Shown here piece by piece: positions 345-30,875 of a stretch of 64,000 nt of DNA. Every line of letters starts with the position of its first letter. The stretch's first letter is position 1. A model generated the notes under the pieces. That model was not told where the DNA came from. It saw only the letters and a program-made list of their open reading frames with translations, and searched no databases. The stretch covers positions 1 to 64,000 of the forward strand of contig CBDBZY010000031.1 in NCBI GenBank assembly GCA_965213685.1. The letters run 5' to 3'. The stretch is from a bacterium. GTDB lineage: Bacteria; UBA8248. The translations under genes were made by a program, and so were the position numbers.

Positions 345-538
345 CTAGTGCGGGCCGCCGCCGCACCCGCTCCTTTCTCCCCGCCTCCCGCCGGCTCCTC
401 CGCTCCTGGGCCAAGCCAGCCTCGAGCACCTCCTGGTTGAACCGGAACTCGTCCGGAGAGCATCGGGCCAGCAGGTGCGGCGGGAGGCCATACGTCCTGG
501 CCTGAAAATGAATCATCGCCAGCACCGCGCTCCTCCTC
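345..538 (-). CDS. Putative tail assembly chaperone frameshift extension (gpGT 'T' domain)
   Basis: The +1 frame past the chaperone stop reads FHKRRSAVLAMIHFQARTYGLPPHLLARCSPDEFRFNQEVLEAGLAQERR; the stop at 345-347 needs one base removed. Confidence 0.45.
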
Positions 539-925
539 TTATGGAAACGCGGCGCCTCGCGGCGCATCCTCCCCGGATGCGGGGGACGACGCCTCCTCCT
601 GCAAGGAGGTGACCGCACTGAAAATCGCGTCGGCGTCCCCGGGGTCGAGTTCGTGAACGCTCAGCTCGTCGGGCAGGCATCGTCCCGGCTCCTTCTCCGT
701 CATGACGCCTCCCTCGGGAACGAAGCAACGCCGCAATACGCAGCGAACCCATTCCCCCGCAAGCGCGTGTCGCTCCTCCTGGTCCGCCGCGCCGTCCGGG
801 GCGCCGGCCAACAATTTCGGATACGCCGCCATGTCCAGGATGCTGGGGGTGCGAACGAAGCCCCTGAGGCCGGAAGGCAGGGTGATGGGCTTGCGGCCGC
901 GGTTTCTGTATTCGGATATTTCCAC
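539..925 (-). CDS. Phage tail assembly chaperone (gpG-like)
   Basis: 128 aa, GTG start after GGGAGG, directly downstream of tail tube; N-terminal ITLPSG..VR.PS..D pattern; ends TTT CCA TAA. Confidence 0.6.
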   Translation of the reverse strand: MEISEYRNRGRKPITLPSGLRGFVRTPSILDMAAYPKLLAGAPDGAADQEERHALAGEWVRCVLRRCFVPEGGVMTEKEPGRCLPDELSVHELDPGDADAIFSAVTSLQEEASSPASGEDAPRGAAFP

Positions 926-986
926 GACACCTCCCGTCCGGCTTTCGCCGGGTCGGCGCTCCCGTTGCGCGCAGGGAAAACGGGAG

Positions 987-2126
987 CTAGGTAAAGACGA
1001 TTCTGATCTCGTCATCGCCCGCATCCCGCGCCAGGCGGAAGGGCGTCTCGTAGGCGAGGACGCCGTCGCGATCCCCAAACCCCAGGTCCGCGTATTGGCA
1101 CCTGGGCGCGGTGATGGAGCAAATGTTCCCGGCGCTCTGGCCAATCCGGACGCTCAGGGCGACCTGCGCCCCGTTTTCCCAGTCGCTGAACACGTCGTTC
1201 GTGCCCTTGAGCACGGCCTCGGGGTCGAATGAGCCGGAGGGCGCCCGGCCCGTCACCACCGCGTTGGTGTGCCCGCCGGGTGCGTTGGCGCTTTGCCGCA
1301 AAACCACGTTGTTGTTCATCGCGAAGCGAATGTCCGTCGCGTCGAAATGGTATCCGCCAAACGAAAAACCGCTCATGAGGACGGGCGCGGGCAGCTGGGC
1401 GTCATAGGAGGCGCCGGCGAGGAGCGCCGCGTCGCTCACCTCGAAGTCGGCCGCCTCGAACTCCCAATCCACCGTGGGCACGCCATCTAGGGGGCAGTGG
1501 ATGGAGAAGCTCCCCATGCAGCCGAGATACATGACCCGCAAACCGTCGACGTATGCGGTCAGGCAAATTCTCGCGTCCTTCGATTTGTCGGAGGAGGGGG
1601 CGTAGGCGACGGAGGCGCCCGCGGCGATCGTCTCCTTCATCGCGCAGCCCTGGAACAGCAACCCGTAATCCGGCGCGACGCCCGCAGCCCCCGACCCGCG
1701 CAACTCGGTGGAGAAGGAAAGCCGGGCGGAGCGTTTCCCCATGATGGAGGGAAACGGCGATACGCTCGCATCCCGCACCGCGCGCTCGAGTTGCTCCACG
1801 TTGAGGTCGTGGGAGAAGTTGCCCGCCTGGAACAATTCCGCCGCCTGGGCCGGCCGATCCAGAAGATACGCCGTCCCCGAAGCGGGCTGGACGCTCCAGG
1901 CCGCATCCAGGGTTATCGTGTCCGAGGGCGCGTCGAAATCCCGCACCCTCCTTTTCTGGCCAAGGCCCGCGCCCCGAATCGTCCGGAGCACGGCGCCGTT
2001 CCAAAAATCGTCGCCCTCCGAGAGGGCGGCGTCCACCAGGGTGGAAGCCCCGGCGGAATCCGCCACGAGTTCCCGCTCCAGCGTTGCGCCGATAGTCTGC
2101 CGATCCATCAATAGAGCGTCGCCCAT
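987..2126 (-). CDS. Phage major tail tube protein (siphophage type)
   Basis: 379 aa; FSTELRGSG.AG.APDYG.L, 'VVTGRAPSGSFDPEA', C-terminal 'GDDEIRIVFT'; lies after tail terminator. Confidence 0.75.
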   Translation of the reverse strand: MGDALLMDRQTIGATLERELVADSAGASTLVDAALSEGDDFWNGAVLRTIRGAGLGQKRRVRDFDAPSDTITLDAAWSVQPASGTAYLLDRPAQAAELFQAGNFSHDLNVEQLERAVRDASVSPFPSIMGKRSARLSFSTELRGSGAAGVAPDYGLLFQGCAMKETIAAGASVAYAPSSDKSKDARICLTAYVDGLRVMYLGCMGSFSIHCPLDGVPTVDWEFEAADFEVSDAALLAGASYDAQLPAPVLMSGFSFGGYHFDATDIRFAMNNNVVLRQSANAPGGHTNAVVTGRAPSGSFDPEAVLKGTNDVFSDWENGAQVALSVRIGQSAGNICSITAPRCQYADLGFGDRDGVLAYETPFRLARDAGDDEIRIVFT

Positions 2127-2297
2127 CGTCTATTCTCCTCCTCCTCTTGTGGGTTTTCCCTAGCGGCGCGGGCGCGTCCTTCCCTTTCCCCGTCCCCGCC
2201 GTCGCTCCCGACTTCCTGTCCCGCGGCGTCCCCGCGTCCGGTTTCCGTCCGGGGCGGCGCGCTCCTCCCCCCGGCCGCCCGCACGTTCCGCCCGCGC

Positions 2298-2831
2298 TCA
2301 ATCGCGCCGAATCCGCTCTATCGCCTGAATGCGAATTTCGGCGTAATGGCAAAGCACGCCTCCGAAGGTTCTCATCTCAATCACGTCCACCTGCGGGGGC
2401 TGGAGGCGCTCCAGGGAGCGGACGCGCGGCGCGCCGGACGCATCGAGGAGGCGAAGCGCCCCGCTCCGCCGGAAGCGATCGCAAATCTCCTCGACCACGT
2501 CCTGGAACGCCAGCTCGCTGCCCGATTCGTCATGGGCGCCCATGATTCCAAACAGCAGAAACGTGTGGGTTCTCCTGTGGAGGCCCGCGGGGACGAAGCC
2601 GCCCGGAGCGCCTGCGCCCACCGACGCAGCCTCCTCCCGCGCCTTCTCGCGCGTCAGCGCCCAGCCCCGTATCTGCCCGCCCCCGCCGCTCGCCTCCCAC
2701 CGGAAAAGGTCCAGGTATTTCCCCAGGTCCGCCGACCAGCGCTGATAGGCGTGCACCCGTCCCGCTCCCGCCACCGCCGATATTTCCGAGGAGATGGCGT
2801 TGCCTATCTCCCTGTAGCGCGATTCAGCCAC
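2298..2831 (-). CDS. Phage tail terminator/completion protein
   Basis: Position between neck and tube genes; GRVH.Y.R...IRGW...SELAFQ..VE.I...FGGVLCHYAEI pattern. Confidence 0.6.
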   Translation of the reverse strand: MAESRYREIGNAISSEISAVAGAGRVHAYQRWSADLGKYLDLFRWEASGGGGQIRGWALTREKAREEAASVGAGAPGGFVPAGLHRRTHTFLLFGIMGAHDESGSELAFQDVVEEICDRFRRSGALRLLDASGAPRVRSLERLQPPQVDVIEMRTFGGVLCHYAEIRIQAIERIRRD

Positions 2832-3333
2832 AGATCCGCCTCCCGATTTCATCCGCCAGCGCGTCGAACCGCTCGGCGACGCGGCCCCGGTTCTCCTCGA
2901 ACGCGCGCGCGAACATATGGCGCCCCCGCGTCCCGCGCCTGGCTATCGCGCGGGCGACGAGAAAGGCCGTGCCCTCGAAATCCCCGTGGCGAGGCTCCAG
3001 GTGCCGCACCACCCAAAGGTACAGGGGCGAACCCCTCCTCCAGGGCGGGAGCGCGCCGCCCGCCGAACGACCGCGCTCCACGTAGGGGGCGTAATCGGCG
3101 ATCGAGAAAACCACGCCGCGCATCCTCCCCCGGCCGTTTCCCCTCGTTTCGGCGAAAACGCTGCCCCGCAGGTTTCCGGTCGCCCCGAAGGGGGTTCTCC
3201 GCACGACCTCCCGCCGGAGCATCCCGGTGACGTCGTCCATCGCCTCGCGCGCGAGCCGGAGCACATCCGCCTCCTCCCGGGCGCGAGGCCGCCCCTCCGC
3301 CATGCCTTCGAACAGCCCCTTCCGACCGCCCAT
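2824..3333 (-). CDS. HK97 gp10-like neck/tail-completion protein
   Basis: TP..TGNLRGS, YAPYVE.G, IARRGT.G.HMF..AFE motifs. Confidence 0.75.
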   Translation of the reverse strand: MGGRKGLFEGMAEGRPRAREEADVLRLAREAMDDVTGMLRREVVRRTPFGATGNLRGSVFAETRGNGRGRMRGVVFSIADYAPYVERGRSAGGALPPWRRGSPLYLWVVRHLEPRHGDFEGTAFLVARAIARRGTRGRHMFARAFEENRGRVAERFDALADEIGRRICG

Positions 3334-3354
3334 GTCCGCCCTCCCTCTCCCGGC

Positions 3355-4065
3355 CTAGCGCTCGGCGGGCGCGCCGTGCGTGAAGTATTCGCCCCGCCGC
3401 ATGGAGAGGCGCCCGTCCCAATCCGCCGAGGCGCCCGCGGCCTCCGCCCACTCGCCCTCCCTCTGGCCGATGTGGGTCTGGTATTTGCGCTCGAGCTCCT
3501 TCGCGAGGCGCGTGTACTCCCCCGCCTTGTTCGGGTAGTCCGTCGCATCCGCCGCGAGGGTCGGCGTCGAGGTCTGGGCGAAGCGGCGGGCCAGGATGTG
3601 ACAACCATCCGCGGCGGCCAGCCATCCCACGGCGATCAGGTCATTTTCGGGAACGCTCGTTCGGGCGTCATCGGCCATGTGCCTGAGCGTGTAGAACAGG
3701 CGGAGCCTCTCGCCCCGGCGCGGGGTGTGGCGCAAGAGCCTGAACTTCTGGGCCGAGGTTCCTTTCGCGTAGATGGTCCAGTCGCGCCCTTCGAGGCAGG
3801 AGGGCGTTCTCTCTCCCTGGGGATATTCCACCGCCCGGACGGTGGAGAGGGAATCATCCCAATCCCCGGGCAGGGAGAAGTCGAACGCCGCGCCGTCGCC
3901 GTCGAAATCCGCAAAAGAGGACAACGGCCTGTCCTTGCTGTAGCGCGCGAGTGCCGCGCGCACCAGATCGGCGTAATCCGCCTCCTCCAGGCCGAACTCC
4001 CGGGGCAGCGCGCCCGCCTTCAGCAACGCCCGCACATCCTGGATGATCGTCTGCCTGCTGGCCAT
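3355..4065 (-). CDS. Phage head-tail adaptor/connector
   Basis: 236 aa after capsid; 'AALARYSKDRP', 'VEYP', helical C-terminus; synteny. Confidence 0.6.
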   Translation of the reverse strand: MASRQTIIQDVRALLKAGALPREFGLEEADYADLVRAALARYSKDRPLSSFADFDGDGAAFDFSLPGDWDDSLSTVRAVEYPQGERTPSCLEGRDWTIYAKGTSAQKFRLLRHTPRRGERLRLFYTLRHMADDARTSVPENDLIAVGWLAAADGCHILARRFAQTSTPTLAADATDYPNKAGEYTRLAKELERKYQTHIGQREGEWAEAAGASADWDGRLSMRRGEYFTHGAPAER

Positions 4066-4110
4066 GTCCGGCTCCTCTCCTCTCTCTCTCCGCGCCCGGT
4101 GCGCGGGCGG

Positions 4111-4233
4111 CTACGTTTTCAGGGTGCGCCTGGCCTCCGCGAACCGGCTCACCTCGAACGCGGCGCTGGCGCCGTCGGCGACGCGCGCCGCCCGGGAAGC
4201 GAGAACTATCGTGTGGGTTCGTCTGTCAGACAT
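4111..4233 (-). CDS. Short (40 aa) post-capsid ORF, possibly truncated decoration protein
   Basis: ATG after GAGG; MSDRRTHTIVLASRAARVADGASAAFEVSRFAEARRTLKT. Confidence 0.35.
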   Translation of the reverse strand: MSDRRTHTIVLASRAARVADGASAAFEVSRFAEARRTLKT

Positions 4234-4268
4234 GGCCTCTCCGATGCGTGCGCGAGCAAGCGCCCGGG

Positions 4269-6290
4269 CTAGGCGGGCGCTCCGCGATAAAAGCCGCGAA
4301 AGTCGAGGACGGCGCCGCCGTAGACGTGCCGGATCTTGTAGCGAATCTTGTCGGCGCTGAATCCGCTGCCGGCGGCGGGATTGTCCTCGATGAACAGCTC
4401 CGGCTCGCGCATGTCGTCCATGAAGCCAATTTCGATGGTGTCCATCAGGCTCGGGTCGGCGACCATGTACCAATCTTCCGCGTCCGTGAGCTCGGGCACC
4501 CACAAGGGCTCCAGGCCCAGGCGGTTGATGACGCTCGGCTGCGTGGAATTCTCGCCCGAGACGACCTTGACGGACGACTGGGTGACGTCGAACGCCTCTT
4601 CGAGCAGCTCCGTGGGGTGCGCCAGATACCTGGGACGCGCCTGGGCCGCCACCTCGACGCTCCCCTCCCCGTAGAACGTCTGCTGCCCCATCGCCTTGAC
4701 GCCGGCGATCACGTTGTCATAGGTCAGCTTGTTCTCCGAGGCGTTCGCGTGATCGACGTGAAAGAGCGCCTTCCCGTCGTAGATGGCGGCGTTCGTCGTC
4801 AGAAAGTCGAACACGAAGGCGTTCAGGGTGCGCTGGGCGGCGCGCGCGAGGCGCTGGGGAATCATCCGAATCGCCCCCATGTCGTCGTTCTGGATCATCT
4901 CCCAGGTGAGGTCCTCCACGCCGCCGCGCTTGGCCACGGCGTATGTCACCTCCTCGTCCGTCGGGGAGGAGAGGGTCGGGTAGTTCGCCTTTTCGGCCAC
5001 CTTCTCCAAATCCCCGTAGCCGCCGACGCGCACCCGCCGGTTCGTTCGGAAATCCTTGACGGGCACCACGGCCGAGACGATTTTCTTCCACTGGTGGAAC
5101 CGCTCGTCCCGGAAATCCCGCAGCAGGGCGCGCCGGATCGAATCCCCGAACGCCTCGCCCCACGTGCTCGTCTCCAGGGAGGCGGAGAGGCGGCGGACGC
5201 CGTTCCAGTTCTCGGCGGTGCGGTGATAATGAAACGTCTCGGCGAAGAACTGGCGCGGGGTGAGGCGACGGCCCGTGAAATCCTGAAACGCCTCGCTCAT
5301 GAAGCGATAGGGCCGCTCCCCTTCGACCGTCCGATCCGGGGAATCCCAAAGGCCGTCCAGGGCCGCCCTCTTGCGGTCCGACTCGTCGCGAACCGCCTCC
5401 GCGCGCGCGCCGAACCCGCGGAGCGCGCCGCTGGCCGTCAGTTTTTCGAGCGTCTCCGCCTCGATGCGAATCGCCTCCTCCAGAGCGTCCTCGCTGAAAC
5501 CGCCCGCGCCGAACTGGGCGCGCACCTTTTCCTGGACGGCCTCCGGCAAGGCGGACGCCGCGAGCTTTCGCGCGAGCAGGCGGCGCGCGTCGGCCCCGCC
5601 CCGTTTCAGTTCCGCCTCGAGGCCCGCCTCTTCACGGGCGGCGGGAAGCCGTTGCGGCGTCCATCCCTCGGCGGCTCCCGCGTCGGAATCGGGCGCCGCG
5701 CTCTTGCGTTTTTTTCCCAGTTTCTCGAACATCTTCACCTCCGGTATAGGGGAATGATGGGCGGCGAGACCCAGAATCCCGCCCCCGAGCCTGCCTTTGT
5801 GGACGATGTCGACGGAGTGAACCGCCAGAATTTTCTCGAAATGCAGGACGAGCCCGCCGGACTCCTCGCGAAACTCCGCCTGGGCGATGACGTCGAACGA
5901 GAACCCGAACGGCTCCTTCACCCCCCGCGACAGCGCATCCTGTGCCAGTGCCTGAAACCAAGCGGCGGAGCGCGAAACCGCGAACGTGCTCACGAGGCCC
6001 TCCTCGCCCATGCGGACGTCGCGGTGCCAGCCAACCAGATCCTTGATGTCGGGGCCGCCCGATGCGGCGTGGTTCGCAAACGCCTGCGCACCCTCGAACA
6101 AGGGAGCGGCCTCGCGCAGAACCTCGCGGGGCAGAAACCATTCGCCATCCTCCGAGTAGCCGTGCCGCGCGATCAGCACGTCGAAATCCCACGCTTCCCC
6201 CGGCGGTGCCTCCTCCGCGACCGCGCGGATGACGCGGCCATGCAGCCGGACGGGGCGAGATGCGCTCCGCACTCGCGCGCGCGCCGACAT
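4269..6290 (-). CDS. Fused prohead protease-scaffold-major capsid protein (Mu gpT-like capsid domain)
   Basis: N-terminal protease-like (FEGA..FANH, VGW, GFS, SVDIV..G..GG), helical middle, C-terminal MCP (VKDFR, TWEMIQNDDMGA, YDGKALFH.DH.N, EPELF, KIRHVYG..VLDFRG.Y); GGAGG RBS. Confidence 0.85.
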   Translation of the reverse strand: MSARARVRSASRPVRLHGRVIRAVAEEAPPGEAWDFDVLIARHGYSEDGEWFLPREVLREAAPLFEGAQAFANHAASGGPDIKDLVGWHRDVRMGEEGLVSTFAVSRSAAWFQALAQDALSRGVKEPFGFSFDVIAQAEFREESGGLVLHFEKILAVHSVDIVHKGRLGGGILGLAAHHSPIPEVKMFEKLGKKRKSAAPDSDAGAAEGWTPQRLPAAREEAGLEAELKRGGADARRLLARKLAASALPEAVQEKVRAQFGAGGFSEDALEEAIRIEAETLEKLTASGALRGFGARAEAVRDESDRKRAALDGLWDSPDRTVEGERPYRFMSEAFQDFTGRRLTPRQFFAETFHYHRTAENWNGVRRLSASLETSTWGEAFGDSIRRALLRDFRDERFHQWKKIVSAVVPVKDFRTNRRVRVGGYGDLEKVAEKANYPTLSSPTDEEVTYAVAKRGGVEDLTWEMIQNDDMGAIRMIPQRLARAAQRTLNAFVFDFLTTNAAIYDGKALFHVDHANASENKLTYDNVIAGVKAMGQQTFYGEGSVEVAAQARPRYLAHPTELLEEAFDVTQSSVKVVSGENSTQPSVINRLGLEPLWVPELTDAEDWYMVADPSLMDTIEIGFMDDMREPELFIEDNPAAGSGFSADKIRYKIRHVYGGAVLDFRGFYRGAPA

Positions 6291-6409
6291 GCGGTTCCTC
6301 CACTTTTTCAAGGCCTGCTCCTTTCCTGTTCTTCCGGGCGTCGGTTCCTGGCGATGCGCCAGAGGGTGCCCCGCGGTTCGGCGAACCAGGCGGCGGATGC
6401 AACGGCGAT

Positions 6410-6461
6410 AATCTAGGGCAGGCGCCTTGCGGTGCGGGCCGCGCAAACGCGGGGAAATGCG
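6410..6461 (-). promoter_or_regulatory. Putative activator-dependent late promoter of head/tail islet
   Basis: Minus strand: CGCATTTCCC-CGCGTTTGCG-N26-TAGATT; same architecture at 19237-19288 and 28948-29009. Confidence 0.7.
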
Positions 6462-6665
6462 CACCGCGCGCCCGTTTGCGGAAAATTTCCGTTTTTCGTG
6501 TTTCTGCGTTTCCCGAAATGCGATACCATGCCGAGGCTATTCGGTTTGCGGAGGTTGGAGTGGACGGGCGCGGCGGCCTCGGCCGATTCGTCTGTCCCCC
6601 GAAAACTTTTCGAATCGTGCGCCATCGAGGCCGCCCCCGAGACGACGCGGACGAGGTTTCCTCTC

Positions 6666-7931
6666 ATGTGGGGTGCCGAGGCGACCATCTTGCAGTTCAT
6701 CCAGCGCCTGTCCTGGAGCCACGCGATCGACATCGGGATCATGTGGTTTCTGCTCTATCAGGTCTACATCCGCTTCAGAGGCACCCAGGCGATGCGCCTT
6801 CTCGTGCGCGTGTTCGTGGTGTGGCTCATCTATCTCGCCTCCCAGGCAGCGGGCCTGCACCTGACCTCGTTTGTGCTCTGGGCCATCTGGATCGCCGTGC
6901 TCATCTTGTTTCTCATCCACTTCCACGGGGAAATTCAAAAGATATTCTTTCAGCTCCACCCGCTGCGCAGACTCTCCGCCCTGTTGCGGCGGGCGATGCG
7001 CATCCGGCTGCCGGAGGAGAGCGTCATGACCATCGCCGGAGCCGCATTTTCCCTCATCGGCGGGCATCTGGGCGCCATCATCGTCCTGGAGCGCCGCGAT
7101 TCGACCGACGCGCTGCTGCGCAGCCCGGGCGAGGAGATCGCCGCAGACGTCCGGCCGGCGTTGCTGGAAACCATCTTCTTCAAGGGAACGCCCTACCACG
7201 ACGGCGCCGCCGTGATTCGCGAGAACAAGGTGTCCCGCGTGGGATGCCTCCTTCCCATCTCCGAGAACCCGGCCCTCCCGCCGGAGTTCGGCGCCCGCCA
7301 CAGGGCGGCGGTGGGCATCACCGAGCGTTGCGACGCCCTGGCGATCGTCATATCCGAGGAGCGGCAGGAGGTCACCTGCGTGGAGGGCGGCCACGTCAAG
7401 ACGACGGGGACGGAGGAGGAGCTCGCCTCCTGGCTCACCGCGCGCCTGCACGCGGCCCGCGAGGCGGCGCAAACGAGGAGCCGCATATCGCTGGAGCCCA
7501 TCCTGGAGAACTGGAAGCCCAAGCTCGCCGCCCTGTCCGCCGTCATCTTTCTCTGGGCACTCGGCGGGCAGGGACGCCAGAATCCGCAGAATTTTTTTCC
7601 GCAACTCGAAAGCAGGTCCGAGGAGGAGTTTCGGGTCCCCCTCCACTACTACAACCTTCCGGACGGCATCGCCCTCTCCGACGGCGCGGCGAGAAGCGTT
7701 CGCGTCCGGCTCCGGGGCGCGCGCGACCTCCTCCACTACATCGACGCCGCCCGCCTGCGCGTGAACGTGAACCTCGCCCAGATGACGCCCGGAGCGCATT
7801 CGCGCACGCTGTCGGGCCGCGACATCGACTTGCCGGGCGGGCTCGAATTCCTCGGCACCGATCCCGGCGCCATCCAGCTGACCCTCCGGAAAGCGGACGC
7901 GCCCGTGAAGCGGACGCCATCAGGCGAATAG
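6666..7931 (+). CDS. cdaA: Diadenylate cyclase CdaA-type with C-terminal YbbR/CdaR-like domain
   Basis: Three N-terminal TM helices, HDGA and G.RHRAA DAC motifs, SEE, extra TM then YbbR-like 'VRVRLRG' domain. Confidence 0.8.
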   Translation: MWGAEATILQFIQRLSWSHAIDIGIMWFLLYQVYIRFRGTQAMRLLVRVFVVWLIYLASQAAGLHLTSFVLWAIWIAVLILFLIHFHGEIQKIFFQLHPLRRLSALLRRAMRIRLPEESVMTIAGAAFSLIGGHLGAIIVLERRDSTDALLRSPGEEIAADVRPALLETIFFKGTPYHDGAAVIRENKVSRVGCLLPISENPALPPEFGARHRAAVGITERCDALAIVISEERQEVTCVEGGHVKTTGTEEELASWLTARLHAAREAAQTRSRISLEPILENWKPKLAALSAVIFLWALGGQGRQNPQNFFPQLESRSEEEFRVPLHYYNLPDGIALSDGAARSVRVRLRGARDLLHYIDAARLRVNVNLAQMTPGAHSRTLSGRDIDLPGGLEFLGTDPGAIQLTLRKADAPVKRTPSGE

Positions 7932-8070
7932 GAGCAAGGGGGGGGGGGGAGACGCGCGGCCCAACCTCCCCCCGGGAGCGGGCTCCCTCGACGCGCGGCG
8001 CCAGCGGGCGGGAGCTTGAGTTTTCCGGGGGGCGCGTTTTTTTCGGACGAGGCGCGCGCGCCGCAAAAAC

Positions 8071-8099
8071 TTGCTTTTTTTATGTCCAGGACCCATATT
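8071..8099 (+). promoter_or_regulatory. sigma70-like promoter
   Basis: TTGCTT-N17-CATATT. Confidence 0.4.
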
Positions 8100-8411
8100 G
8101 AATGACACGGAGGCGTGATCGACGACCGGGGCAAGAAGGAGGAAGCGGTATCGCCCGAAACTCCCACGCCGCATGAAGAGGGCTGAGGAGGGGAGCCGAC
8201 ATAGGCAGCGGCTCCGGGGCAGGAGAGTTCTCGAAGGGGGGAGGATGCGATGATATTCAGAATGAATCGCTTCACGCGCGCCGAGTTTCCAGCCTCCCCG
8301 GCCCACCGCATCAGCCGGGCGGGGAGGAAACCTCAAGGCTGATGCCCATGTCAAGGCGGCAAATCGCCTTTGCGAGGTGGGAGGAAGTCCCACCCGGAAG
8401 CGGAACCAAAG

Positions 8412-8445
8412 AGAGCGGGACGAAACGTCCCGCTCTTCTTTTTTT
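8412..8445 (+). terminator. Rho-independent terminator
   Basis: AGAGCGGGACG-AAA-CGTCCCGCTCT followed by T tract. Confidence 0.8.
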
Positions 8446-8656
8446 ACGGATTGCCGGCGGCCGGGGCCTGCGCCGCCAACTTCCGCATCTCGATCTCCAG
8501 CTGCTGCAGCCTGTTCTTGATCATGTTGAAGTCATACTCGAACCCCTCCGCGAGCAGCACCAGCCCCTGATACAGCCGATATTTCTCAGGCGCATCCGCC
8601 TCGCTCACCGAATCGCGCATCTCGACGAAAGCCTCTCTCGCATGATGAAAGCTCAA
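8444..8656 (-). CDS. Small hypothetical coiled-coil protein (70 aa)
   Basis: Protein-like composition, purine-rich RBS, ends at terminator. Confidence 0.55.
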   Translation of the reverse strand: MSFHHAREAFVEMRDSVSEADAPEKYRLYQGLVLLAEGFEYDFNMIKNRLQQLEIEMRKLAAQAPAAGNP

Positions 8657-8789
8657 ATCGCATCCCCCCTCTTCCCGGAATGGGCGCCCCGAAACGAAAA
8701 CTGTCTTGCGGGAGGAAATCCTACCCGCATCTCTGCTAGAATCAAGCGCGTCGACGAATCATCCATCACCCTTTCGAGGAGTCGCCTTC

Positions 8790-9284
8790 ATGCCGGAACG
8801 ACCGAACACGCCACAGGTCATCCTGCGGCACATCCAGGGCACCCAGCTGCAGATGCTGACCACCACGGGCAAGCACTCCTACGTGCTCGACGAGCCGGAG
8901 GCCCGCGGCGGCACGGACCTCGCCGCCACGCCGTTCGAGTTCTTCGTCGCGGGCCACGCGGGCTGAGGCCTCTACACGCTGCTGGGAGCGGCGAAGAGCA
9001 GGGGCATCCGCATCGACGACGTGGAGGTGCACGCGGAGTTCAAGCGCAACCTCTCGCCGAAGTTTCACCCGGATTTCCACGGGGACCCCGAGCGCAGAAA
9101 ATTGTCCATCGGCGTCATTCGCACGAACTATTACATTCACGGCGACGTCTCCGAGGAGCAGCGGGCGGAACTCCTGGAGGAGCTCGCGAACTGCCCCATC
9201 CACAACACGCTGGTGACGCCGCCGCAGCTGGAGGAGCGCATCGTCGTTCTGGAGAGAGACGAGCCCCCTCCCCGGGAAGCCTGA
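8790..9284 (+). CDS. OsmC/Ohr-family selenoprotein (Sec at UGA 8964-8966)
   Basis: DEP...GGTD..ATP.E...AG-UGA-G in frame with downstream ..CPIHNTL; UGA at first catalytic Cys; hairpin immediately 3'. Confidence 0.8.
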
Positions 9285-9384
9285 CGCCGGACGGAGGGGG
9301 GAGGGGGGCACTCCCCCCGGCGGGAAGCCTGACGCCGGACGGAGGGCGGGGGAGAGGGGGGGCGCGCTCCCCCCGGCGGGAAGG
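9273..9384. repeat. Intergenic tandem repeat (~48-56 bp period) with G/C hairpins
   Basis: CGGGAAGCCTGACGCCGGACGGAGGG at 9273 and 9321, partial third copy at 9377. Confidence 0.7.
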
Positions 9385-9451
9385 ACAGCCAGACGGGAGA
9401 CGGGAGGACGCGTCCCCTCCAAGGCGGACAACCACAATAAAGGAACGCACG

Positions 9452-10354
9452 ATGAAAATCGGATTTATCGGCCTGGGGAAGATGGGCGGCGGCATGGCGG
9501 CCAACCTCCAGAAAGCGGGCCATGCGCTCGTGGCACACGACATCGTCCGCGAGGCGGCCGCGGAGCATCTGGAGCGGGGCGCCCGCTGGGCGGATTCTCC
9601 CAAGGAGGTCGCCCGCGCGTGTGAAATCACCTTCACCTCGTTGCCGGGGCCAAAGGAGGTCGAGAGCGTCGCCACGGGTGCCGACGGCATCCTCGAGGGC
9701 ATCCGCGCGGGAGACGTCTACATCGACCTGAGCACGGGATACCCCGCCAGCGTCCGGAGCGTGTACGAAAAATTCTCGGACGCCGGCGCGCACATGATGG
9801 ACGCGCCCGTGAGCGGCTCCACCATCGGCGCGAAAACCGGACGCCTGGCGATCATGGCCGGCGGCGACAAGGACGTGTATGAGCGCTGCAAACCCGTCCT
9901 CGCGGCCATCGGGGATCGCCTCACCTACACGGGCGGGATCGGCAGCGGCACCATCTGCAAGCTCGCCCACAACTGCCTGGGCTACGGCATCCAGGCCATC
10001 GCGGCGGAATGCTACACCCTGGGCGTCAAGGCGGGAGCGGAACCCGGGGCGGTGGCGGAGACCATCCGCAACGGCGCCGTGGGCCGGGGCGTGCACTTTC
10101 ATTTCATCTTTCCCGAAACGTTCCTGAAGGGAAAATTCGACGCGCCCCACTTTCCCATGAAGGGCGCGGCGAAGGACGTGGGCCTCGCTCTCGCACTGGC
10201 CCGGGAGCACCAGGTGCCCATGACGATGGGCAACATCGCCTACCAGGAGCTCATCGCGGGACTCAACCGCGGATGGGGGGAGGATGACGCGAGACGCGCC
10301 ATGACGCTGCAGGAGGAGCGCGCGGGCGGCGTTTCCGTGAGAGTCCAAGAATAG
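9452..10354 (+). CDS. NAD(P)-dependent oxidoreductase, 3-hydroxyisobutyrate dehydrogenase family
   Basis: MKIGFIGLGKMG, DAPVSG, KLAHN. Confidence 0.9.
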   Translation: MKIGFIGLGKMGGGMAANLQKAGHALVAHDIVREAAAEHLERGARWADSPKEVARACEITFTSLPGPKEVESVATGADGILEGIRAGDVYIDLSTGYPASVRSVYEKFSDAGAHMMDAPVSGSTIGAKTGRLAIMAGGDKDVYERCKPVLAAIGDRLTYTGGIGSGTICKLAHNCLGYGIQAIAAECYTLGVKAGAEPGAVAETIRNGAVGRGVHFHFIFPETFLKGKFDAPHFPMKGAAKDVGLALALAREHQVPMTMGNIAYQELIAGLNRGWGEDDARRAMTLQEERAGGVSVRVQE

Positions 10355-10372
10355 CGCGAGGTCTGACACAGG

Positions 10373-11410
10373 ATGAAACACGGCATCGCCATGCTGCCGC
10401 CTGCGCCGGCGACCTACGCCCGCTGGTGTCGGCTCGCCGAGGAGGCGGGCTTCGACGTCATCTGGGTGCCGGACTCCCAGTCGCTCTACAGGGAGATGTA
10501 CGTCTCCTGTGCCGTCTGCGCCGCGAACACGTCGCGCGCGCTGCTGGGCCCCAACGTCACCAACCCGCTCACGCGGCACCCCGCAGCAGCCGCAAGCGCG
10601 ATCGCCACGGTGGACGAGCTATCCGGCGGGCGGGCGCTCTTCGGAATCGCCACGGGCGACAGCGCCGTCCTGAACCTGGGCCTGCGCCCCGGCCGGGTGG
10701 ACGATTTGCGGGAGTACGTCCTCGCCCTGCGGGGGATGCTCGAGGAGGGGGTCGGGCACTATCAGGGAAAATCCTGCGCCCTGGGCTGGCACCGAAAGCG
10801 CGTCCCCCTCTACATCGCCGCCGAGGGGCCGCGCACCATCCGGCTCGCGGGCGAGGTGGCCGACGGCGTCATCATCGGGACCGGCCTCACCCCGGAGGTG
10901 GTGGCGGATTCCCTCTCCTGGCTGGCCGACGGCGCCAGCGCATCGGGCCGCCGGGTGCGCGACCTCGACGTCTGGTGGCTGGTGAAGGCCCACGTGGGAG
11001 AAGACGGGGGGCGCGTCCGCGAGGAGATTCGCACCGCCCTCGCCGCGAGTGCGCACCACGCCTTTCGCTTCGCACTCGACGGCAGGCGGATTCCCCGGCG
11101 ATTCCTCTCCGCCGTCGAAACCCTCAAGAGGGAATACGCATTTCACGAGCACGAGATGATGGACAGACAGGCGAACGCGGAGCTCGTGGACAGGCTCGGC
11201 CTGCGGGAATACCTGCTGGATCGCTTCGCCATCGCCGGCACGCCCGCCGAATGCCGCGCCAGGCTGGAAAGCCTGCGGGCGATCGGCGTCGAGAACCTCA
11301 GAATTTCCGCCCACGTGCCCGATAAGCCCGCCTTCATCGAAACGTGGAGCCGCGAGGTGATGGGCGGGGGCGAAACCGCGCCAGCAGAGACAAAGAGGAC
11401 GCTTCCATGA
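10373..11410 (+). CDS. LLM-class flavin-dependent oxidoreductase (Mer-like)
   Basis: AEEAGFD, VTNPLTRHP, SGGRA..GI.TGDS, LAGEVADGV. Confidence 0.9.
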   Translation: MKHGIAMLPPAPATYARWCRLAEEAGFDVIWVPDSQSLYREMYVSCAVCAANTSRALLGPNVTNPLTRHPAAAASAIATVDELSGGRALFGIATGDSAVLNLGLRPGRVDDLREYVLALRGMLEEGVGHYQGKSCALGWHRKRVPLYIAAEGPRTIRLAGEVADGVIIGTGLTPEVVADSLSWLADGASASGRRVRDLDVWWLVKAHVGEDGGRVREEIRTALAASAHHAFRFALDGRRIPRRFLSAVETLKREYAFHEHEMMDRQANAELVDRLGLREYLLDRFAIAGTPAECRARLESLRAIGVENLRISAHVPDKPAFIETWSREVMGGGETAPAETKRTLP

Positions 11411-13082: not shown

Positions 13083-13089
13083 TACGCGC

Positions 13090-15208: not shown

Positions 15209-15228
15209 CTTAGGCACCCTTCTAGCGG

Positions 15229-15585: not shown

Positions 15586-15596
15586 TCGGTTTCCTC

Positions 15597-19185: not shown

Positions 19186-19236
19186 CCCTGCGACTCCTCC
19201 GTCCCGAGGACGCCGCGCGCATCCTCACGGGGGAGG

Positions 19237-19288
19237 AATATAGAAGGGGGAGAGGGTGGGCCACGCCGCGCAAATGCGGGGAGATGCG
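19237..19288 (-). promoter_or_regulatory. Putative activator-dependent late promoter of terminase/portal islet
   Basis: Minus strand: CGCATCTCCC-CGCATTTGCG-N26-TATATT. Confidence 0.7.
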
Positions 19289-19298
19289 CGCCTCCAGC

Positions 19299-25775: not shown

Positions 25776-26051
25776 GGCTCGCCTTTCCGGAAGAAGGGAA
25801 ACCGATCTGGACGATGCGTTCAGGAATGCGAAAATATATCCGACCACGCGCGCCCCGTCCAGGCCGGACGCCTCCCGGAGGCGAAACGCTGGGAGTGGGA
25901 AGAAAATGACGCGACGATTCCTTCCCCAAAACCTTACCGGAGAGGATGCGCAACGCTTTCTTTCATTGTGGCGGGGCGATAGGGGCGTGATTCCTGGGGT
26001 TGTGGTTTCGGCACCCGCGCGTCAGCGGAGGCAATCCGCGGGAAGTCGCTC

Positions 26052-26321
26052 TTACGTGTTGCGCTTCAAGCTATCGTGACCGCCTATGCGGCGCAGTGTA
26101 ATTTCGTCGTTTTCCCGCCAAAATGTCGCGCGGCACCCTTGGGTGATCCTCATGTACCAGACATACTTGCCTTCACGCATTTGTCCTAGCTTGCCGATTT
26201 TCAGAGAATTGTGTCCCGGGTTTTCACACAACAATCGTATTTGCTTTCTCGCGGCGTCCTGTATCTCGGGAGGGAGTTTCCTGAAATCTCGATCGAAACT
26301 TGATAAGCTAGAGAGTTTCAT
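26052..26321 (-). CDS. RelE/ParE-superfamily toxin
   Basis: F.RDFRKL...NP.H.SL...RIT...R..F...LRRIG.HD. Confidence 0.75.
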   Translation of the reverse strand: MKLSSLSSFDRDFRKLPPEIQDAARKQIRLLCENPGHNSLKIGKLGQMREGKYVWYMRITQGCRATFWRENDEITLRRIGGHDSLKRNT

Positions 26322-26336
26322 CCAGCATCATGCGCA

Positions 26337-26624
26337 TCACAAAGAGGCCAAAAGTTCGTCCACGGAATCGTAAGACTGAAGCCTTCCCGCTCTGTGATCT
26401 TCATCCGCCTCATCTTCCATGGCCTGCCATTCATCGGAATAAAACCAGGGAGGCTCTCTTTTCGTGCTGACGTCCATAGTATCCGCCTGCTCATAAGCAG
26501 GCGGGACAGTCTGTTGGGTTTGTGAAGCCTCGGGAATCCAACAAACCACCAAGGCCGGCGGCGATGTTTCCACCAACAGGCTCCAATAATCGTTTTTGAC
26601 GGTGGTCGCCGCACCCCCGTACAT
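26337..26624 (-). CDS. Putative antitoxin
   Basis: C-terminal WFYSDEWQAMEDEADED..AGR..SYDSVDELLASL; directly upstream of toxin. Confidence 0.65.
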   Translation of the reverse strand: MYGGAATTVKNDYWSLLVETSPPALVVCWIPEASQTQQTVPPAYEQADTMDVSTKREPPWFYSDEWQAMEDEADEDHRAGRLQSYDSVDELLASL

Positions 26625-26637
26625 AGCTCGCTCCACG

Positions 26638-26946
26638 TCAGGTTGAAGTCTGCTTTCGTTGCTCTGTAATTTGCATTGTATCCGGGAAAAACTTTCGACC
26701 CGTGGCCCTCTCGGCTTCCACAATTTGCCTCAACAGCATCATGGCCGTATCCGCCGCAACCTTCATGGGCAACATGACCTCGCCGACCACATGAGTTTTT
26801 TGGGTCTGTGGGCGCAATTGGGCGAATGACAAAATAATTCCTATATCCGCATTCGTCACCGCCCGGACAAAATCCGCAAAGGGGATATCCTTGTCTGCGT
26901 CCAAAACAAGAGGCCTCGCATCCTGTTGCTTGTCCTGGTTGTTCAT
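26638..26946 (-). CDS. DUF3467-like hypothetical protein
   Basis: FAD.V....IILSFAQ...V.LP...A......QI...E...G pattern; first gene of low-GC TA islet. Confidence 0.5.
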   Translation of the reverse strand: MNNQDKQQDARPLVLDADKDIPFADFVRAVTNADIGIILSFAQLRPQTQKTHVVGEVMLPMKVAADTAMMLLRQIVEAERATGRKFFPDTMQITEQRKQTST

Positions 26947-27164
26947 CAGCGCGAATACACTCCTTCGGAGCGACAAGAAATTTTACCTTCCTTGAATCCG
27001 TGGCGGCCAGAAAGCATCACTGCGATATTAGCAAACAACAAAGCCACGCGCCAACTATAACATATCCCCTACCCGGAAATTAACGCTGGCGCTTCTCGCG
27101 CCGAATGCGTGCTGATCCTCGCCCGCTCGGAAACCGGAACTCCTCGCCCGCTCGGAGTTCATCC

Positions 27165-27707
27165 TCAAACCCGCTCCTCCAGGGCGCGGGCCGCCTCCAC
27201 CGTGAGTTCCTGCAGTTTCGCCAACACCTCCGGGTGGGCGTGAAGCGACTCGCGCACCTCCCGCAAGATCGCCCCCTTCGCCGCCGCGAACCCGTCCTCG
27301 TATTCCAGACGGAGGCGCTCGGCCGATATGCGGGTGCGCTCCAGGGCGTTCACCATCCGGGCCAGGGTCTCGGGCGTGAGGTCATCGAAGGACTCCCGCT
27401 TCATCTGCGAGATCGCCTCGACCGCCTGCGTCATCAGCATCCGCCGCGCGGCCGCCGCCACCTTCTCGACCGGGTCCCGCCCCCGGCCGTCATACGCCAG
27501 CATCTCCCCGATCAGCTCGTCCACCATGGCCTCCACCCGCCTGCTCTTGCGGATGCCATCGCGCAGCCTGTCGTTCCGCTCGCCGACGGAGGAGAGGCAT
27601 ATATTCTCCGCCGTCGCCTCCCCGCAGGCCCGCCCCGCCCGCCGGGGGGTCTTCCCGCCACCGGCGCCGGCGATTCTCGCCCTGCGCCCTCCTCCTGCGG
27701 CCATCAC
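27165..27707 (-). CDS. Mu gp27/DUF3486-like protein (candidate small terminase)
   Basis: I.LSSVG motif, helical body, C-terminal HPE....L; GTGA overlap with gp26-like gene. Confidence 0.55.
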   Translation of the reverse strand: MMAAGGGRRARIAGAGGGKTPRRAGRACGEATAENICLSSVGERNDRLRDGIRKSRRVEAMVDELIGEMLAYDGRGRDPVEKVAAAARRMLMTQAVEAISQMKRESFDDLTPETLARMVNALERTRISAERLRLEYEDGFAAAKGAILREVRESLHAHPEVLAKLQELTVEAARALEERV

Positions 27708-28036
27708 AACTCTCCCACGAGGATGTCGGGTGCGGAGGAAACCGTTCCCTCGAGCAGGCCCCGCCCCTTGCGGGAGAGGTGTACCTCATAGTCCGTCAGC
27801 AGGCGCCCGAACCCCTCCGGGGTGTGTTTCTCCAAAAAGCCCCGGGCGGCGAGATCCTCCACGAACGCCTCTATCGTCTCGCGGCCAATGGGCGCGCCAT
27901 CCTCATGGTGGCCCGCCTCGCGCAGCGCGCTCCACAGCAGAAGGCTGCCCACCGGGGATTGGTCATGAAAGGCTCCCTGGTAATAGAGCGTCTTCAATAT
28001 GTCGCCGCGAAGAACGCGGGCCGCCAACTCGTTCAC
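27704..28036 (-). CDS. Mu gp26-like winged-helix protein
   Basis: R..ILK.L, L..RGFL, V.LS.KG..LLEG....P.I; GGAGG RBS. Confidence 0.6.
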   Translation of the reverse strand: MNELAARVLRGDILKTLYYQGAFHDQSPVGSLLLWSALREAGHHEDGAPIGRETIEAFVEDLAARGFLEKHTPEGFGRLLTDYEVHLSRKGRGLLEGTVSSAPDILVGEL

Positions 28037-28703: not shown

Positions 28704-28871
28704 TCAATGGGCGCCGTCGCTCGCCGAGACGAGACCCACGCCCGCCAACGCGCCCAGAAGGTCCTGAATCGCCATCACGTCCATCCCCCCGCCGTAGACC
28801 TTCGCGACCAGCGAGAGGAGACTCGCTCCCAGAACCAGATAGCCGGTGACCGTCGTCTTGGGATGATGCAT
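28704..28871 (-). CDS. Small two-TM holin-like protein (55 aa)
   Basis: MHHPKTTVTGYLVLGASLLSLVAKVYGGGMDVMAIQDLLGALAGVGLVSASDGAH; KTT..G and GL..A.D; GGAGG RBS. Confidence 0.55.
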   Translation of the reverse strand: MHHPKTTVTGYLVLGASLLSLVAKVYGGGMDVMAIQDLLGALAGVGLVSASDGAH

Positions 28872-29612: not shown

Positions 29613-29838
29613 GGCGCGCGCAGCGGCCGCATCCCTCCCGCGCGGCCGCCTCCTGCGACAAGCCGGGATTTTGCGGCGGCGCTCTCCCGCCCTGGAGCGT
29701 CCGGTACGGCATCCGCCCGAACCGCCGCCCTGCGTGAAGCAACGCCCCGCCCGATATGGTCGTGTCCCGGCGCATCGCCTGGCGCACCACCCGTCCCGCA
29801 GGCATTCGCGGTCTCCCGCAGGGGAGGATTTCCCCCTA

Positions 29839-30225
29839 CTACTCCTCCTCCCGCATTCCGCCGAATTTCCACTCGAGGTCGAGCGGGAACTCCTCCTGCA
29901 TCTTCTCGATGTAGGCCAGGACGTCCTCGCGGCGGAAGCGCGCGCTCTTGAAGGAGGGATGGTTCTTCGGCTGTCGAACGCCCGGGCGCGGGGGCGGGCG
30001 GCGGAGGTAGACGGGCCGCAGGCAGGGAGCGTCGCTCGCGCAGTCCTCGGCCACGATGGCGTCGAGCGAGCGGTGGCTCTTGTAGCCCAGAACCTTGGCC
30101 AGCATGGGCTTGGTGAGAAGCGCCTCCTCCTCCAGAATGCGGCGCGGAGTCCTGGGGTCCGGCGGCGCCTGCTTGGCGCCTCCGCCATTGCGCTTGCGCG
30201 TGCGGGCATCCCCGGGCGGGCGCAT
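29839..30225 (-). CDS. Excisionase/MerR-like helix-turn-helix DNA-binding protein
   Basis: LLT...LAKVLG...S.....RFRREDVLAYI; TGATG coupled to upstream ORF. Confidence 0.6.
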   Translation of the reverse strand: MRPPGDARTRKRNGGGAKQAPPDPRTPRRILEEEALLTKPMLAKVLGYKSHRSLDAIVAEDCASDAPCLRPVYLRRPPPRPGVRQPKNHPSFKSARFRREDVLAYIEKMQEEFPLDLEWKFGGMREEE

Positions 30226-30470
30226 CAGCGGAGCGCCTCTTGCAAGGGGAGCACCTGAACGTCGCGCCGCCTAGCGCGCCCCGACCGCAGGAGCGCGTCG
30301 GCGCGCCTCCGGGCGGATGCGAGGCTCGGGAACAGGAGGCTGACGCTCCTGTCGCGCGTCAGGTCCCGATAGGTGAGCAGCGCGCCCTCCCCCGGCACGC
30401 CGAACCCCTCGTCCACCAGGTCGGATATGGTGCGCTCATGGGTGCTGATGAAAGAGACGGCCTCGTCCAT
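30225..30470 (-). CDS. Hypothetical protein (81 aa)
   Basis: GGAGG RBS; coupled to HTH gene. Confidence 0.55.
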   Translation of the reverse strand: MDEAVSFISTHERTISDLVDEGFGVPGEGALLTYRDLTRDRSVSLLFPSLASARRRADALLRSGRARRRDVQVLPLQEALR

Positions 30471-30787
30471 GACGTCCTCCTGCGCGTGGGTGCGATCGAT
30501 GCCCGCTGAAAAGATGAAAGACGCCCGGACGGCCTGCGCGGTCTGGATACTGCCGGAATGGAAAAGGAGGGAGCGCCCCGCCTGTGGCGACGCGGGGCGC
30601 CTCACGGAGGGGGATGGGGTGGGAATTTGCGGGACAGGCCATCCGGGCAAGGCGAATTCCGAAAGGAAACGCCAAATATGGATACGTTCGATATTTTTTT
30701 GAGAAATTCACGAAACCGGCTTCCTTTCGCATAGTCCTTTATATCCTAAGCCGTTATATCCATGATGCAGATGCGCGCGACCTTTCA

Positions 30788-30875
30788 TGTGATATTCTTG
30801 TTTGCATATCACACAAGCAGATAATAACTATATTAGAATGTATGTGTCAACAAAAATATCTATAAATAGCTATTT
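30788..30875 (-). promoter_or_regulatory. AT-rich promoter/operator region upstream of HTH operon
   Basis: Minus strand TTGACA(30850-30845)-N18-TATTAT; inverted repeat TGTGATAT-N10-ATATCACA 30788-30813; palindrome AAATAGCTATTT 30864-30875. Confidence 0.6.

Follow-up and report, generated by a model that had tools for sequence, protein, structure and literature searches.

Virion genes in islets between host genes

Within the first 31 kb of the DNA analyzed here, phage-like packaging and structural genes lie on the minus strand in four islets (A1 to A4), which follow the order of phage late genes and are set apart from each other by host genes (Table 1). This DNA, referred to below as the window, comprises the first 64 kb of contig C31 (GenBank accession number CBDBZY010000031.1) of a bacterial genome of the UBA8248 lineage (assembly GCA_965213685.1; here, G000), a draft of 7.97 Mb in 71 contigs with a completeness of 94%; the G+C content of the window is ~67%. 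Together with a fifth islet, found on contig C58, the four islets form the candidate gene transfer agent (GTA)-like system that is the subject of this report. Open reading frames (ORFs) were chosen by codon-position G+C content, and their translations, 69 in total for the window, were scanned against Pfam and PHROGs. The gene set occupies at least five islets at two loci, and these scans of the window and the C58 islet found no replication, integration, or lysogeny genes.

A first-pass annotation, made from the window sequence, had listed five islets in a Mu-like late order. Four of them were recovered in place, but the remaining one, a "holin" (28704 to 28871), does not belong to the set: an ORF with two hydrophobic segments is present there, but none of the syntenic regions of seven relatives contains a counterpart (best E value, 0.2), and this stretch cannot be aligned between species. 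The likeness to Mu holds for the small terminase and, weakly, for the capsid protein, but the large terminase resembles lambda gpA. The two ORFs of the proposed helix-turn-helix (HTH) operon, islet A1, are present, but neither matches a family, and the HTH label comes solely from inspection of the sequence. The 141-aa ORF of this islet has ~52 to 53% identity to its counterparts in relatives G007 and G020, and the 128-aa ORF is, by inference only, a candidate DNA-binding regulator.

Matching the first-pass annotation, the 69 window translations yielded no hit to an integrase, transposase, repressor, or replication family (small unannotated ORFs remain). The genome as a whole yielded four matches to the tyrosine recombinase family PF00589, none of them on C31 or C58.

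That the islets and host genes truly adjoin is shown by independent contigs of three sequencing runs (X1, X2, and X3), which bridge window positions 1 to 10672 and 11685 to 20000; those over the first stretch extend 8 to 30 kb further to the left. Since the interleaved arrangement is also seen in closed genomes of relatives, it is no assembly artifact, and the misassembly at islet junctions that the first-pass annotation had named as a refutation was not found. Single-base extras aside, the X1 and X2 contigs match the window with no other differing letters over 10.7 and 8.3 kb. The extras comprise seven single bases in the window (positions 177, 352, 7938, 11799, 16303, 16936, and 17410), six of which, all except 7938, are confirmed as such by X3, a slightly different strain. 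They break the portal gene three times and a luciferase-like host gene (~11800) once, and those at 177 and 352 touch the chaperone region at the end of A4; about one such error per 3 kb is to be expected across the rest of G000.

A two-piece large terminase and an intact portal

Islet A3 encodes the large terminase as two ORFs, an N-terminal ATPase half (TerL-N) covering positions 26 to 341 of the 576 positions of phrog_675 and a C-terminal nuclease half (TerL-C) covering positions 358 to 547. The stop codon of TerL-N overlaps the start codon of TerL-C (ATGA), with a GGAGG sequence seven bases upstream. This junction is kept in 6/6 genomes aligned, and the third-position bias of substitutions switches frame exactly there, which argues that the split is a retained feature rather than damage.

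Directly downstream, the portal gene of the window reads in three frames because of three of the single-base insertions (16303, 16936, and 17410). In relatives, it is one 457-aa ORF, free of stops in all 20 carriers of the system. With the three extra bases removed, the window frame is open for 494 codons, and its product is 85% identical to the portal of relative G008 over all 457 residues. A portal pseudogene in G000 was rejected, since the frameshifting bases are absent from the independent contigs of X1, X2, and X3. The lambda portal family PF05136 had no match in G000, the window ORF reaching only an E value of 0.003.

The small terminase (TerS), in islet A2, lies directly downstream of a conserved 110-aa ORF (81 to 83% identity in relatives). 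Its two profile matches begin at position 47 of 184 (phrog_426) and position 70 of 173 (PF11985); its first ~35 residues are rich in glycine and arginine, and relatives align only from residues 16 to 18 onward. The small terminases of known GTAs are described, in an excerpt of PMC11841831, as having no DNA-binding domain. Additional partial copies of the TerS C terminus lie beside TerS in G005, G015, and G016.

Head and neck genes of islet A4

The first gene of islet A4 encodes a fusion of a protease, a helical linker, and a major capsid protein. It probably starts at the ATG at 6290, which is preceded by GGAGG, while the longest ORF reaches 6464. Only the N-terminal domain of the structure model was used (residues ~70 to 222). 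Its best structural match was the T4 prohead protease gp21 (E value, 4e-4; template modeling [TM] score, 0.59 on the target), followed by herpesvirus assemblins, in agreement with the label of the matching PHROG, "major head and protease protein" (phrog_4523). A PDB sequence search with the capsid profile returned only weak matches to Mu GpT (E value, 0.004), and the match to the Mu-type family PF10124 (8.7e-4) fell below the cutoff.

Next in the islet, a 236-aa ORF stays beside the capsid gene even in distant clusters, and the 184-aa ORF after the Neck1 gene has 75 to 80% identity in relatives. After the tube gene, two overlapping frames form a pair for which a chaperone role is inferred from position; the pair has no family match, and its orthologues in G008 are L017:3921-4370 and L017:4204-4560. 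Islet A4 stops at ~350 against a convergent cupin-like host gene and thus is not cut by the contig end.

A distant tail islet

An 8-kb tail islet on contig C58, flanked by an M23 peptidase gene on one side and a second host gene on the other, was hit by ORFs that follow the capsid-neck genes in the contiguous clusters of two more distant genomes (G032 and G027; see below). The first-pass annotation had expected tape measure and baseplate genes to lie elsewhere, and the islet indeed encodes a tape-measure-like protein and a tail-tip hub. In the closed genomes of G022, G008, G007, G020, and G011, a distance of 0.26 to ~2.4 Mb separates this islet from the head islets.

The 403-aa hub was modeled from an alignment of 21 homologues (predicted local distance difference test [pLDDT] score, 76.8; predicted TM [pTM] score, 0.71), and the model matches the tail-tip hubs of T5, JBD30, Chi, and lambda (Foldseek E values, 2.6e-8 to 2.3e-4). 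Atlas leads for this protein were TipJ/Phage-tail_3 proteins, and a PDB sequence search gave one chance-level match (E value, 0.49). Four of 48 hub homologues are longer and carry a C-terminal LamG domain. The G007 orthologue of the tape-measure-like protein has a weak match to PF10145, a tape measure family for which nothing above the cutoff was found in five genomes. The 590-aa protein had no PDB sequence match, and its Atlas scores of ≤0.83 are leads only. The tail-islet lipoprotein has three tandem paralogues in G007 (L109:15096-16754).

Table 1. Features of the candidate system in the window (contig C31) and in the tail islet (contig C58), with identity to the query in the 20 of 22 other species that carry each marker and the ratio of nonsynonymous to synonymous substitutions (dN/dS) between G000 and five relatives
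Feature	Position	Strand	Match or basis	Identity (20/22)	dN/dS
A1 control region, AT-rich	30789-30850	minus	sigma-70-like promoter and inverted repeat		
A1, first small ORF, 141 aa as listed (start uncertain)	30225-30650	minus	no Pfam or PHROG match		
A1, second small ORF, 128 aa	29839-30225	minus	no Pfam or PHROG match	77-84%	0.15-0.30
A2, 110-aa ORF directly upstream of TerS	27704-28036	minus	conserved		0.16-0.24
A2, TerS, Mu gp27-like	27165-27707	minus	PF11985, 1.8e-5 (below cutoff); phrog_426, 1e-6	63-72%	0.30-0.56
Shared promoter before A3 (TerL-N)	19237-19289	minus	motif 19289-19269, 26-nt spacer, TATATT 19242-19237		
A3, TerL-N, ATPase half, 352 aa	18127-19185	minus	GpA_ATPase, 4e-18; phrog_675, 1e-51	72-78%	0.18-0.27
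A3, TerL-C, nuclease half, 215 aa	17483-18130	minus	phrog_675, 5e-10		0.20-0.28
A3, portal	16116-17482	minus	orthologous portal, phrog_10963, 5e-47	82-96% (query from G008)	
Shared promoter before A4 (capsid)	6410-6462	minus	motif 6462-6442, 26-nt spacer, TAGATT 6415-6410		
A4, protease-helical linker-major capsid fusion	4269-6290	minus	Phage_capsid_4, 6e-44; phrog_4523, 3e-51	78-83%	0.17-0.23
A4, 236-aa head/neck ORF	3355-4065	minus	no family match		0.35-0.46
A4, Neck1/tail completion, HK97 gp10-like	2824-3333	minus	PF04883, 7e-6; phrog_5, 4e-15		0.42-0.65
A4, 184-aa neck/tail ORF	2298-2852	minus	no family match		0.24-0.30
A4, tail tube	987-2126	minus	Phage_tube_2, 2e-15; phrog_290, 1e-19	75-81%	0.16-0.22
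A4, chaperone-like overlapping pair, two frames (~542-970, ~355-618)	350-975	minus	frame periodicity, position		
Tail islet, all genes	C58:28657-36708				0.15-0.64
Shared promoter before first tail-tip gene	C58:28667-28687 (motif)		motif, then TATATT		
Tail islet, 590-aa frame, first tail-tip frame	L100:8657-10429		two ORFs in three relatives		
Tail islet, 403-aa tail-tip hub			structure model	68-78%	
Tail islet, 160-aa ORF		opposite			
Tail islet, 194-aa ORF					
Tail islet, short protein			one membrane helix and coiled coil		
Tail islet, lipoprotein					
Tail islet, tape-measure-like protein			phrog_1535, 6e-7		

A shared promoter motif and the control region of A1

A word search over six upstream regions yielded a common 21-nt element, GCGCATYTSCCCGCRTTTGCG, consisting of two tandem 10-bp units. 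At ≤2 mismatches, it has three copies in the 7.97 Mb of G000, before TerL-N, before the capsid gene, and before the first tail-tip gene, and a reversed-pattern control has none; the pattern was derived from those three copies, so that their perfect match is given by construction, while the absence of other copies with one or two mismatches is not. Each copy is oriented like its genes and is followed, 25 to 26 bases on, by a -10-like hexamer, which places the motif at about -59 to -39, with a conserved -10 and without a conserved -35 element. In five relatives, motif and -10 hexamer are conserved at the same three places, with the spacer between them free to vary; G019 has diverged copies at all three. 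Further copies lie before the small-terminase islet in G008 and G022 and before the tape-measure gene in G008 and G007. Read against phage late promoters, this layout may be that of an activator-dependent promoter.

A different kind of control region precedes islet A1. Here, a sigma-70-like promoter (TTGACA-18-TATTAT, 30850 to 30821), which by consensus match alone agrees at 11/12 positions, directly precedes an inverted repeat with 7-nt arms spaced 10 nt apart (30812 to 30789), also read from the sequence. Such a combination would suit a host-controlled entry point to the system, and A1 might encode the activator of the shared promoter.

Conservation, selection, and loss across the genus

For each of seven markers of the system (Table 1), the carriers are the same 20 among the 22 other species of the genus, G009 and G010 being the two that lack all seven; the search for orthologues in relatives that the first-pass annotation had proposed came out in its favor. 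No stops were reported within the capsid, TerL-N, portal, or hub gene in any of the 20 carriers. The 7.97-Mb genome of G000 is larger than the 2.9 to 4.6 Mb (rounded) of the 22 other species, with an estimated contamination of 3.7%; each marker is single copy in it. The 128-aa A1 ORF occurs in two copies in G022 (C1:4188432 and C1:4190173).

The interleaving with host genes proved equally conserved. The whole 31 kb, host and phage-like genes alike, is syntenic in 5/5 relatives fetched (G008, G022, G007, G001, and G020), and the block from cdaA to the portal gene is the same in the 12 capsid gene loci in which cdaA and the capsid module occur together. Islet order is identical in every genome in which the islets share a contig, and gaps vary: 119 kb separate TerL and TerS in G011, and the A1 ORF of G001 lies 283 kb away.

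Selection was estimated by the Nei-Gojobori method. Over 17 phage-like genes, dN/dS ranges from 0.15 to 0.65, compared with 0.06 to 0.46 for host neighbors, so that the values below 1 expected by the first-pass annotation were indeed obtained; dS is ~0.4 to 0.8 in both classes alike, with two host values of up to 1.2. Substitutions in the phage-like genes are skewed to third codon positions. Additionally, protein distances for capsid, tube, and two neck genes correlate with those for cdaA and the luciferase-like gene (r = 0.97; 78 pairs from 13 genomes; Mantel P = 1e-4), which excludes separate prophage acquisitions, although strict vertical descent is not proven by it, since the genes are neighbors.

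The two species without the system carry the same host genes. In G010, the host genes of the region are all in order and each islet is separately gone: cdaA directly adjoins the cupin gene, the A1 ORFs are missing along with TerS and its partner, and only a 26-aa piece of the portal C terminus and a degraded motif remain, between the 364-aa host gene and amtB. G009 shows the same retention of host genes and loss of islets with different deletion borders and without any remnant; the 110-aa A2 ORF and the 141-aa A1 ORF are missing from both species. At the tail locus of both, the M23 peptidase gene directly adjoins the next host gene. A tree of five host genes (2,564 columns) places G010 as sister to carrier G020 (support, 100/99) and groups G009 with carriers G000, G007, and G001 (100/100). 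G009 and G010 are therefore not sisters, whatever the root, and two independent losses have occurred. Loss of all parts at two unlinked loci, twice, is what would be expected if the parts work only together.

These observations bear on two other accounts of the islets. The first, an active or recent prophage with "host-like" cargo genes or a chimeric assembly, might be brought to mind by the single-base errors of a draft genome. It is hardly credible, given that cdaA, amtB, gltB, and others stay in place in both species that lack the phage-like genes, that the tail islet is far removed and closed genomes show the same order, and that independent contigs bridge the junctions, with no integrase on C31 or C58. 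According to the second, the islets are slowly decaying, scattered, and functionless remnants of an old prophage, and the scattering itself, the missing replication and integration module, the one interrupted tube gene (see below), and the total loss in two species would all fit. We nevertheless regard it as very improbable: frames are open in 20/20 carriers (capsid, TerL-N, portal, and hub) at a dS of ~0.4 to 0.8 and under the purifying selection described above, the promoter motif and its -10 hexamer are kept while the spacer is free, loss was all or nothing at two loci on two occasions, and the frameshifts in the window are assembly errors.

Origin of the scattered cluster

More distant relatives of the system have it in a less scattered form. 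In G025, G032, and G027 (capsid identity, 36 to 42%), the portal gene lies 0.9 to 2 kb from the capsid gene, and in the latter two, the tail-tip genes continue in one cluster after the capsid genes. At higher capsid identity, L064 (69%) has the genes from capsid to tube, the tape measure gene, and the tail-tip genes all contiguous, and L062 (67%) has portal to tube and tail tip contiguous, with TerL-N ~11 kb upstream of the portal gene. An intermediate state is seen at L070 (68%), where amtB, the split TerL, and the portal gene are followed by only two host genes before the capsid gene. Together, these loci show that the cluster was once contiguous and that, in this family, it was broken up stepwise by host genes.

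Within 60 kb of the G032 (L035 to L037) and G027 (L038 to L040) clusters, the flanks show no synteny. Both clusters encode the large terminase (536 aa) in a single ORF, and it has no detectable similarity to the split gpA-like terminase. Despite this different terminase, their portal, capsid, and neck genes are homologous to those of the window genus, and the packaging module appears to have been exchanged. Capsid relatives in Actinomycetota and Pseudomonadota (29 to 44% identity) probably belong to ordinary prophages.

Host genes and low-G+C inserts

The host genes between the islets comprise cdaA (with a YbbR domain), two NAD-binding/luciferase-like redox genes, a UGSC-family gene, a 364-aa gene of a multicopy family, yajQ (DUF520), the ammonium transporter gene amtB, a HAMP-cyclase gene, an S15 peptidase gene (cocE), and genes for a membrane protein and a lipoprotein (named from Pfam where matched); those that the first-pass annotation had named were confirmed by Pfam. 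Past the last islet follow a LysR regulator gene and the glutamate synthase gene gltB, and the remainder of the window is metabolic. The 364-aa gene, located beside the portal gene (13090 to 14184), has no Pfam match; G009 and G010 each contain 9 to 12 full-length paralogues of it, and several of these are arranged in tandem.

Three stretches of low G+C content were seen. The first (14200 to 16100; 54 to 58%, versus ~67%) contains a PIN-domain ORF (14256 to 14807) and ORFs without matches; it does not align with relatives, and positions 14716 to 15710 are absent from the X3 strain. Located where the host block gives way to the portal gene, it is probably a toxin-antitoxin island specific to the strain. 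The second (26000 to 27000), largely absent from relatives, contains three small ORFs without a Pfam match, one of which (26052 to 26321) resembles, by eye, a RelE/ParE-type toxin. The third (53600 to 55150) carries an N6/N4 DNA methylase gene (53947 to 55146) among metabolic genes.

A likely gene transfer agent-like role

In view of their conservation, selection, and concerted loss, the islets almost certainly constitute a domesticated, functionally coupled set. As to what this set is for, a GTA-like role, i.e., the formation of particles that would package host DNA, seems likely to us, with a probability of roughly 70%. In such a system, the A1 operon, under its own sigma-70-like promoter and palindromic operator, would supply one or more regulators, and the shared late-type promoter, observed before the terminase-portal, capsid-neck-tube, and distant tail-tip islets, might then switch these on. 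The protease-scaffold-capsid fusion would build proheads on the portal and process itself, after which TerS and the two translationally coupled TerL polypeptides (ATPase and nuclease) would package DNA into these; a noncontractile tail would be built from the tube, the tape-measure-like protein, and the lambda-J/T5-pb3-like hub, together with the chaperone. Since the two loci are 0.26 to ~2.4 Mb apart and no replication or integration genes accompany them, no particle would carry the whole set, and the packaged DNA would, if packaging occurs as proposed, be largely that of the host.

Going one step further, the set might represent an independently evolved GTA family, distinguished by fragmentation into at least five islets, a terminase of two polypeptides, and a dedicated activator-dependent promoter whose motif is multiplied to 30 to 70 copies in most carriers and nearly missing where the system was lost. 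This proposal is tentative, and we would give it slightly less than an even chance.

The evidence for domestication is silent on the cargo or action of any particle. The set might therefore have been domesticated for some other purpose, such as particles for killing or signaling, delivery of protein or DNA, or programmed DNA release, with capsid and terminase kept for that end; the longer, LamG-bearing relatives of the hub would fit changing targets. However, purifying selection on TerS, both TerL halves, and the portal argues that DNA packaging matters, and we consider such other purposes rather unlikely.

Several observations weigh against a GTA-like role or limit the support for it. The production of particles containing host DNA is a prediction from the genomes. 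Of the predicted parts of the system, the small terminase has a Pfam match under the family cutoff, the two A1 ORFs that are the candidate regulators match neither Pfam nor PHROGs, and no lysis gene was identified for the system, the "holin" candidate not being conserved. The full-length capsid model is poor (mean pLDDT, 44.3), and only its N-terminal domain is confident (blocks at 65 to 89). The 590-aa frame of the tail islet corresponds to two overlapping ORFs in different frames in G008, G022, and G007, so that the G000 frame may be either a further assembly error or a real fusion. In G013, the tube is in two pieces (residues 1 to 235 and 233 to 379) ~1.8 kb apart (C2:994499-997423), possibly because of an insertion; this is the only interrupted marker gene among the 20 carriers. 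Constraint is only moderate in some genes, with a dN/dS of 0.42 to 0.65 for Neck1 and 0.37 to 0.55 for the tape-measure-like protein. Finally, the detailed synteny and selection analyses cover 5 to 7 of the 20 carriers, the species tree is built from five linked host genes, and the distance correlation compares adjacent genes.

The abundance of the promoter motif elsewhere counts on the same side. At ≤2 mismatches, 19 of the 20 other carriers hold 30 to 70 copies per genome, compared with two in G019 and three in G000, and the control was 0 everywhere. We examined 20 regions of G020 (L111 to L130), covering 31 of its 43 copies. These carry the -10-like hexamer at the same distance and are followed by a few families of downstream sequence; copies cluster, some as inverted pairs 250 to 370 bp apart or as tandem arrays. 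Many face no codirectional gene, and of 10 downstream ORFs scanned, the 8 with Pfam matches are all housekeeping genes; a coherent regulon formed by the additional copies is thus unsupported. A search of the 20 G020 loci against Rfam returned only two tRNAs, located away from the motifs. The motif could be part of a dispersed repeat, and the additional copies weaken the case that it is private to the system, although its near-absence where the system was lost (no copies in G009 and two in G010) is notable. On the tentative reading of an independent GTA family, this pattern of copy numbers would hint at short elements, or sites related to packaging, that depend on the regulator of the agent.

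Comparison with known systems

GTAs, as characterized in an excerpt of PMC11841831, retain only packaging and structural genes, are inherited vertically, occupy several loci that are sometimes hundreds of kilobases apart, and arose several times from different phages; their discovery in genomes is hard, since they resemble prophage remnants and are spread over several loci (PMC11841831, same excerpt). The system described here likewise has packaging and structural genes only, vertical inheritance under purifying selection, and several distant loci, over which its complete gene set is spread too widely for one particle to carry. It shares with GTAs of the RcGTA type in Alphaproteobacteria (Rhodobacter capsulatus and Caulobacter), to the extent that they are described in that excerpt, a set of packaging, head, and siphovirus-like tail genes free of replication and integration genes, the clade-wide vertical inheritance, the several loci, and the dedicated promoter set (PMC11841831).

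From RcGTA it differs in lineage and ancestral phage, in its gpA-like two-ORF terminase, Phage_capsid_4/Mu gpT-like protease-capsid fusion, and Mu gp27-like TerS, and in having its head-tail genes divided among four islets and a remote tail islet, where RcGTA has retained a core cluster of ~15 kb. GpA_ATPase, Phage_capsid_4, and Phage_Mu_Gp27 are not known to be among the families of RcGTA. For VSH-1 of Brachyspira and BaGTA of Bartonella, particles and transfer have been proven by experiment, whereas the present system is known through its genes.

Judged by titles and the beginnings of abstracts, we found no literature linking GTAs to Nitrospinota or "Candidatus Tectomicrobia." What is new here is a putative independent origin in a lineage for which the literature searched reported no GTA, combined with extreme fragmentation of the head-tail genes, a two-piece terminase, and a multiplied promoter unit. 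Few GTAs are known, and nearly all well-studied ones are in Alphaproteobacteria; besides pointing out a candidate agent in an uncultured lineage, the analysis provides a comparative recipe that separates a GTA from a remnant, namely, one phyletic pattern, host-like dS with low dN/dS, all-or-nothing unlinked loss in two lineages, and a shared promoter. The series from contiguous to fragmented clusters shows a domesticated virus being absorbed into the chromosome, and the system offers a natural two-piece large terminase as well as a promoter element that varies in copy number with the presence or absence of the system.

Activator-dependent phage late promoters of the Mu C/Mor and P2 Ogr types have an upstream element close to the -35 position, a -10 element, and no conserved -35 and stand before several late operons. 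The shared promoter of the present system resembles them in its upstream element and -10 without a conserved -35, repeated before late operons, and differs in that its element is built of one 10-bp unit repeated directly in tandem and has 30 to 70 further genomic copies in most species.

Finally, like tailocins and defective prophages such as PBSX, the system would consist of phage-derived particles fixed in the chromosome and unable to propagate. Tailocins, tail-only killing particles, have no capsid, portal, or terminase, and PBSX-type elements are contiguous; since capsid, portal, and terminase are all kept, the present system is not a tailocin. Neither is it a Mu-like transposable prophage, since there is no transposase in the scanned ORFs, its terminase is gpA-like, and it has no element bounds, the host genes between the islets persisting in G009 and G010, where the islets themselves were lost.

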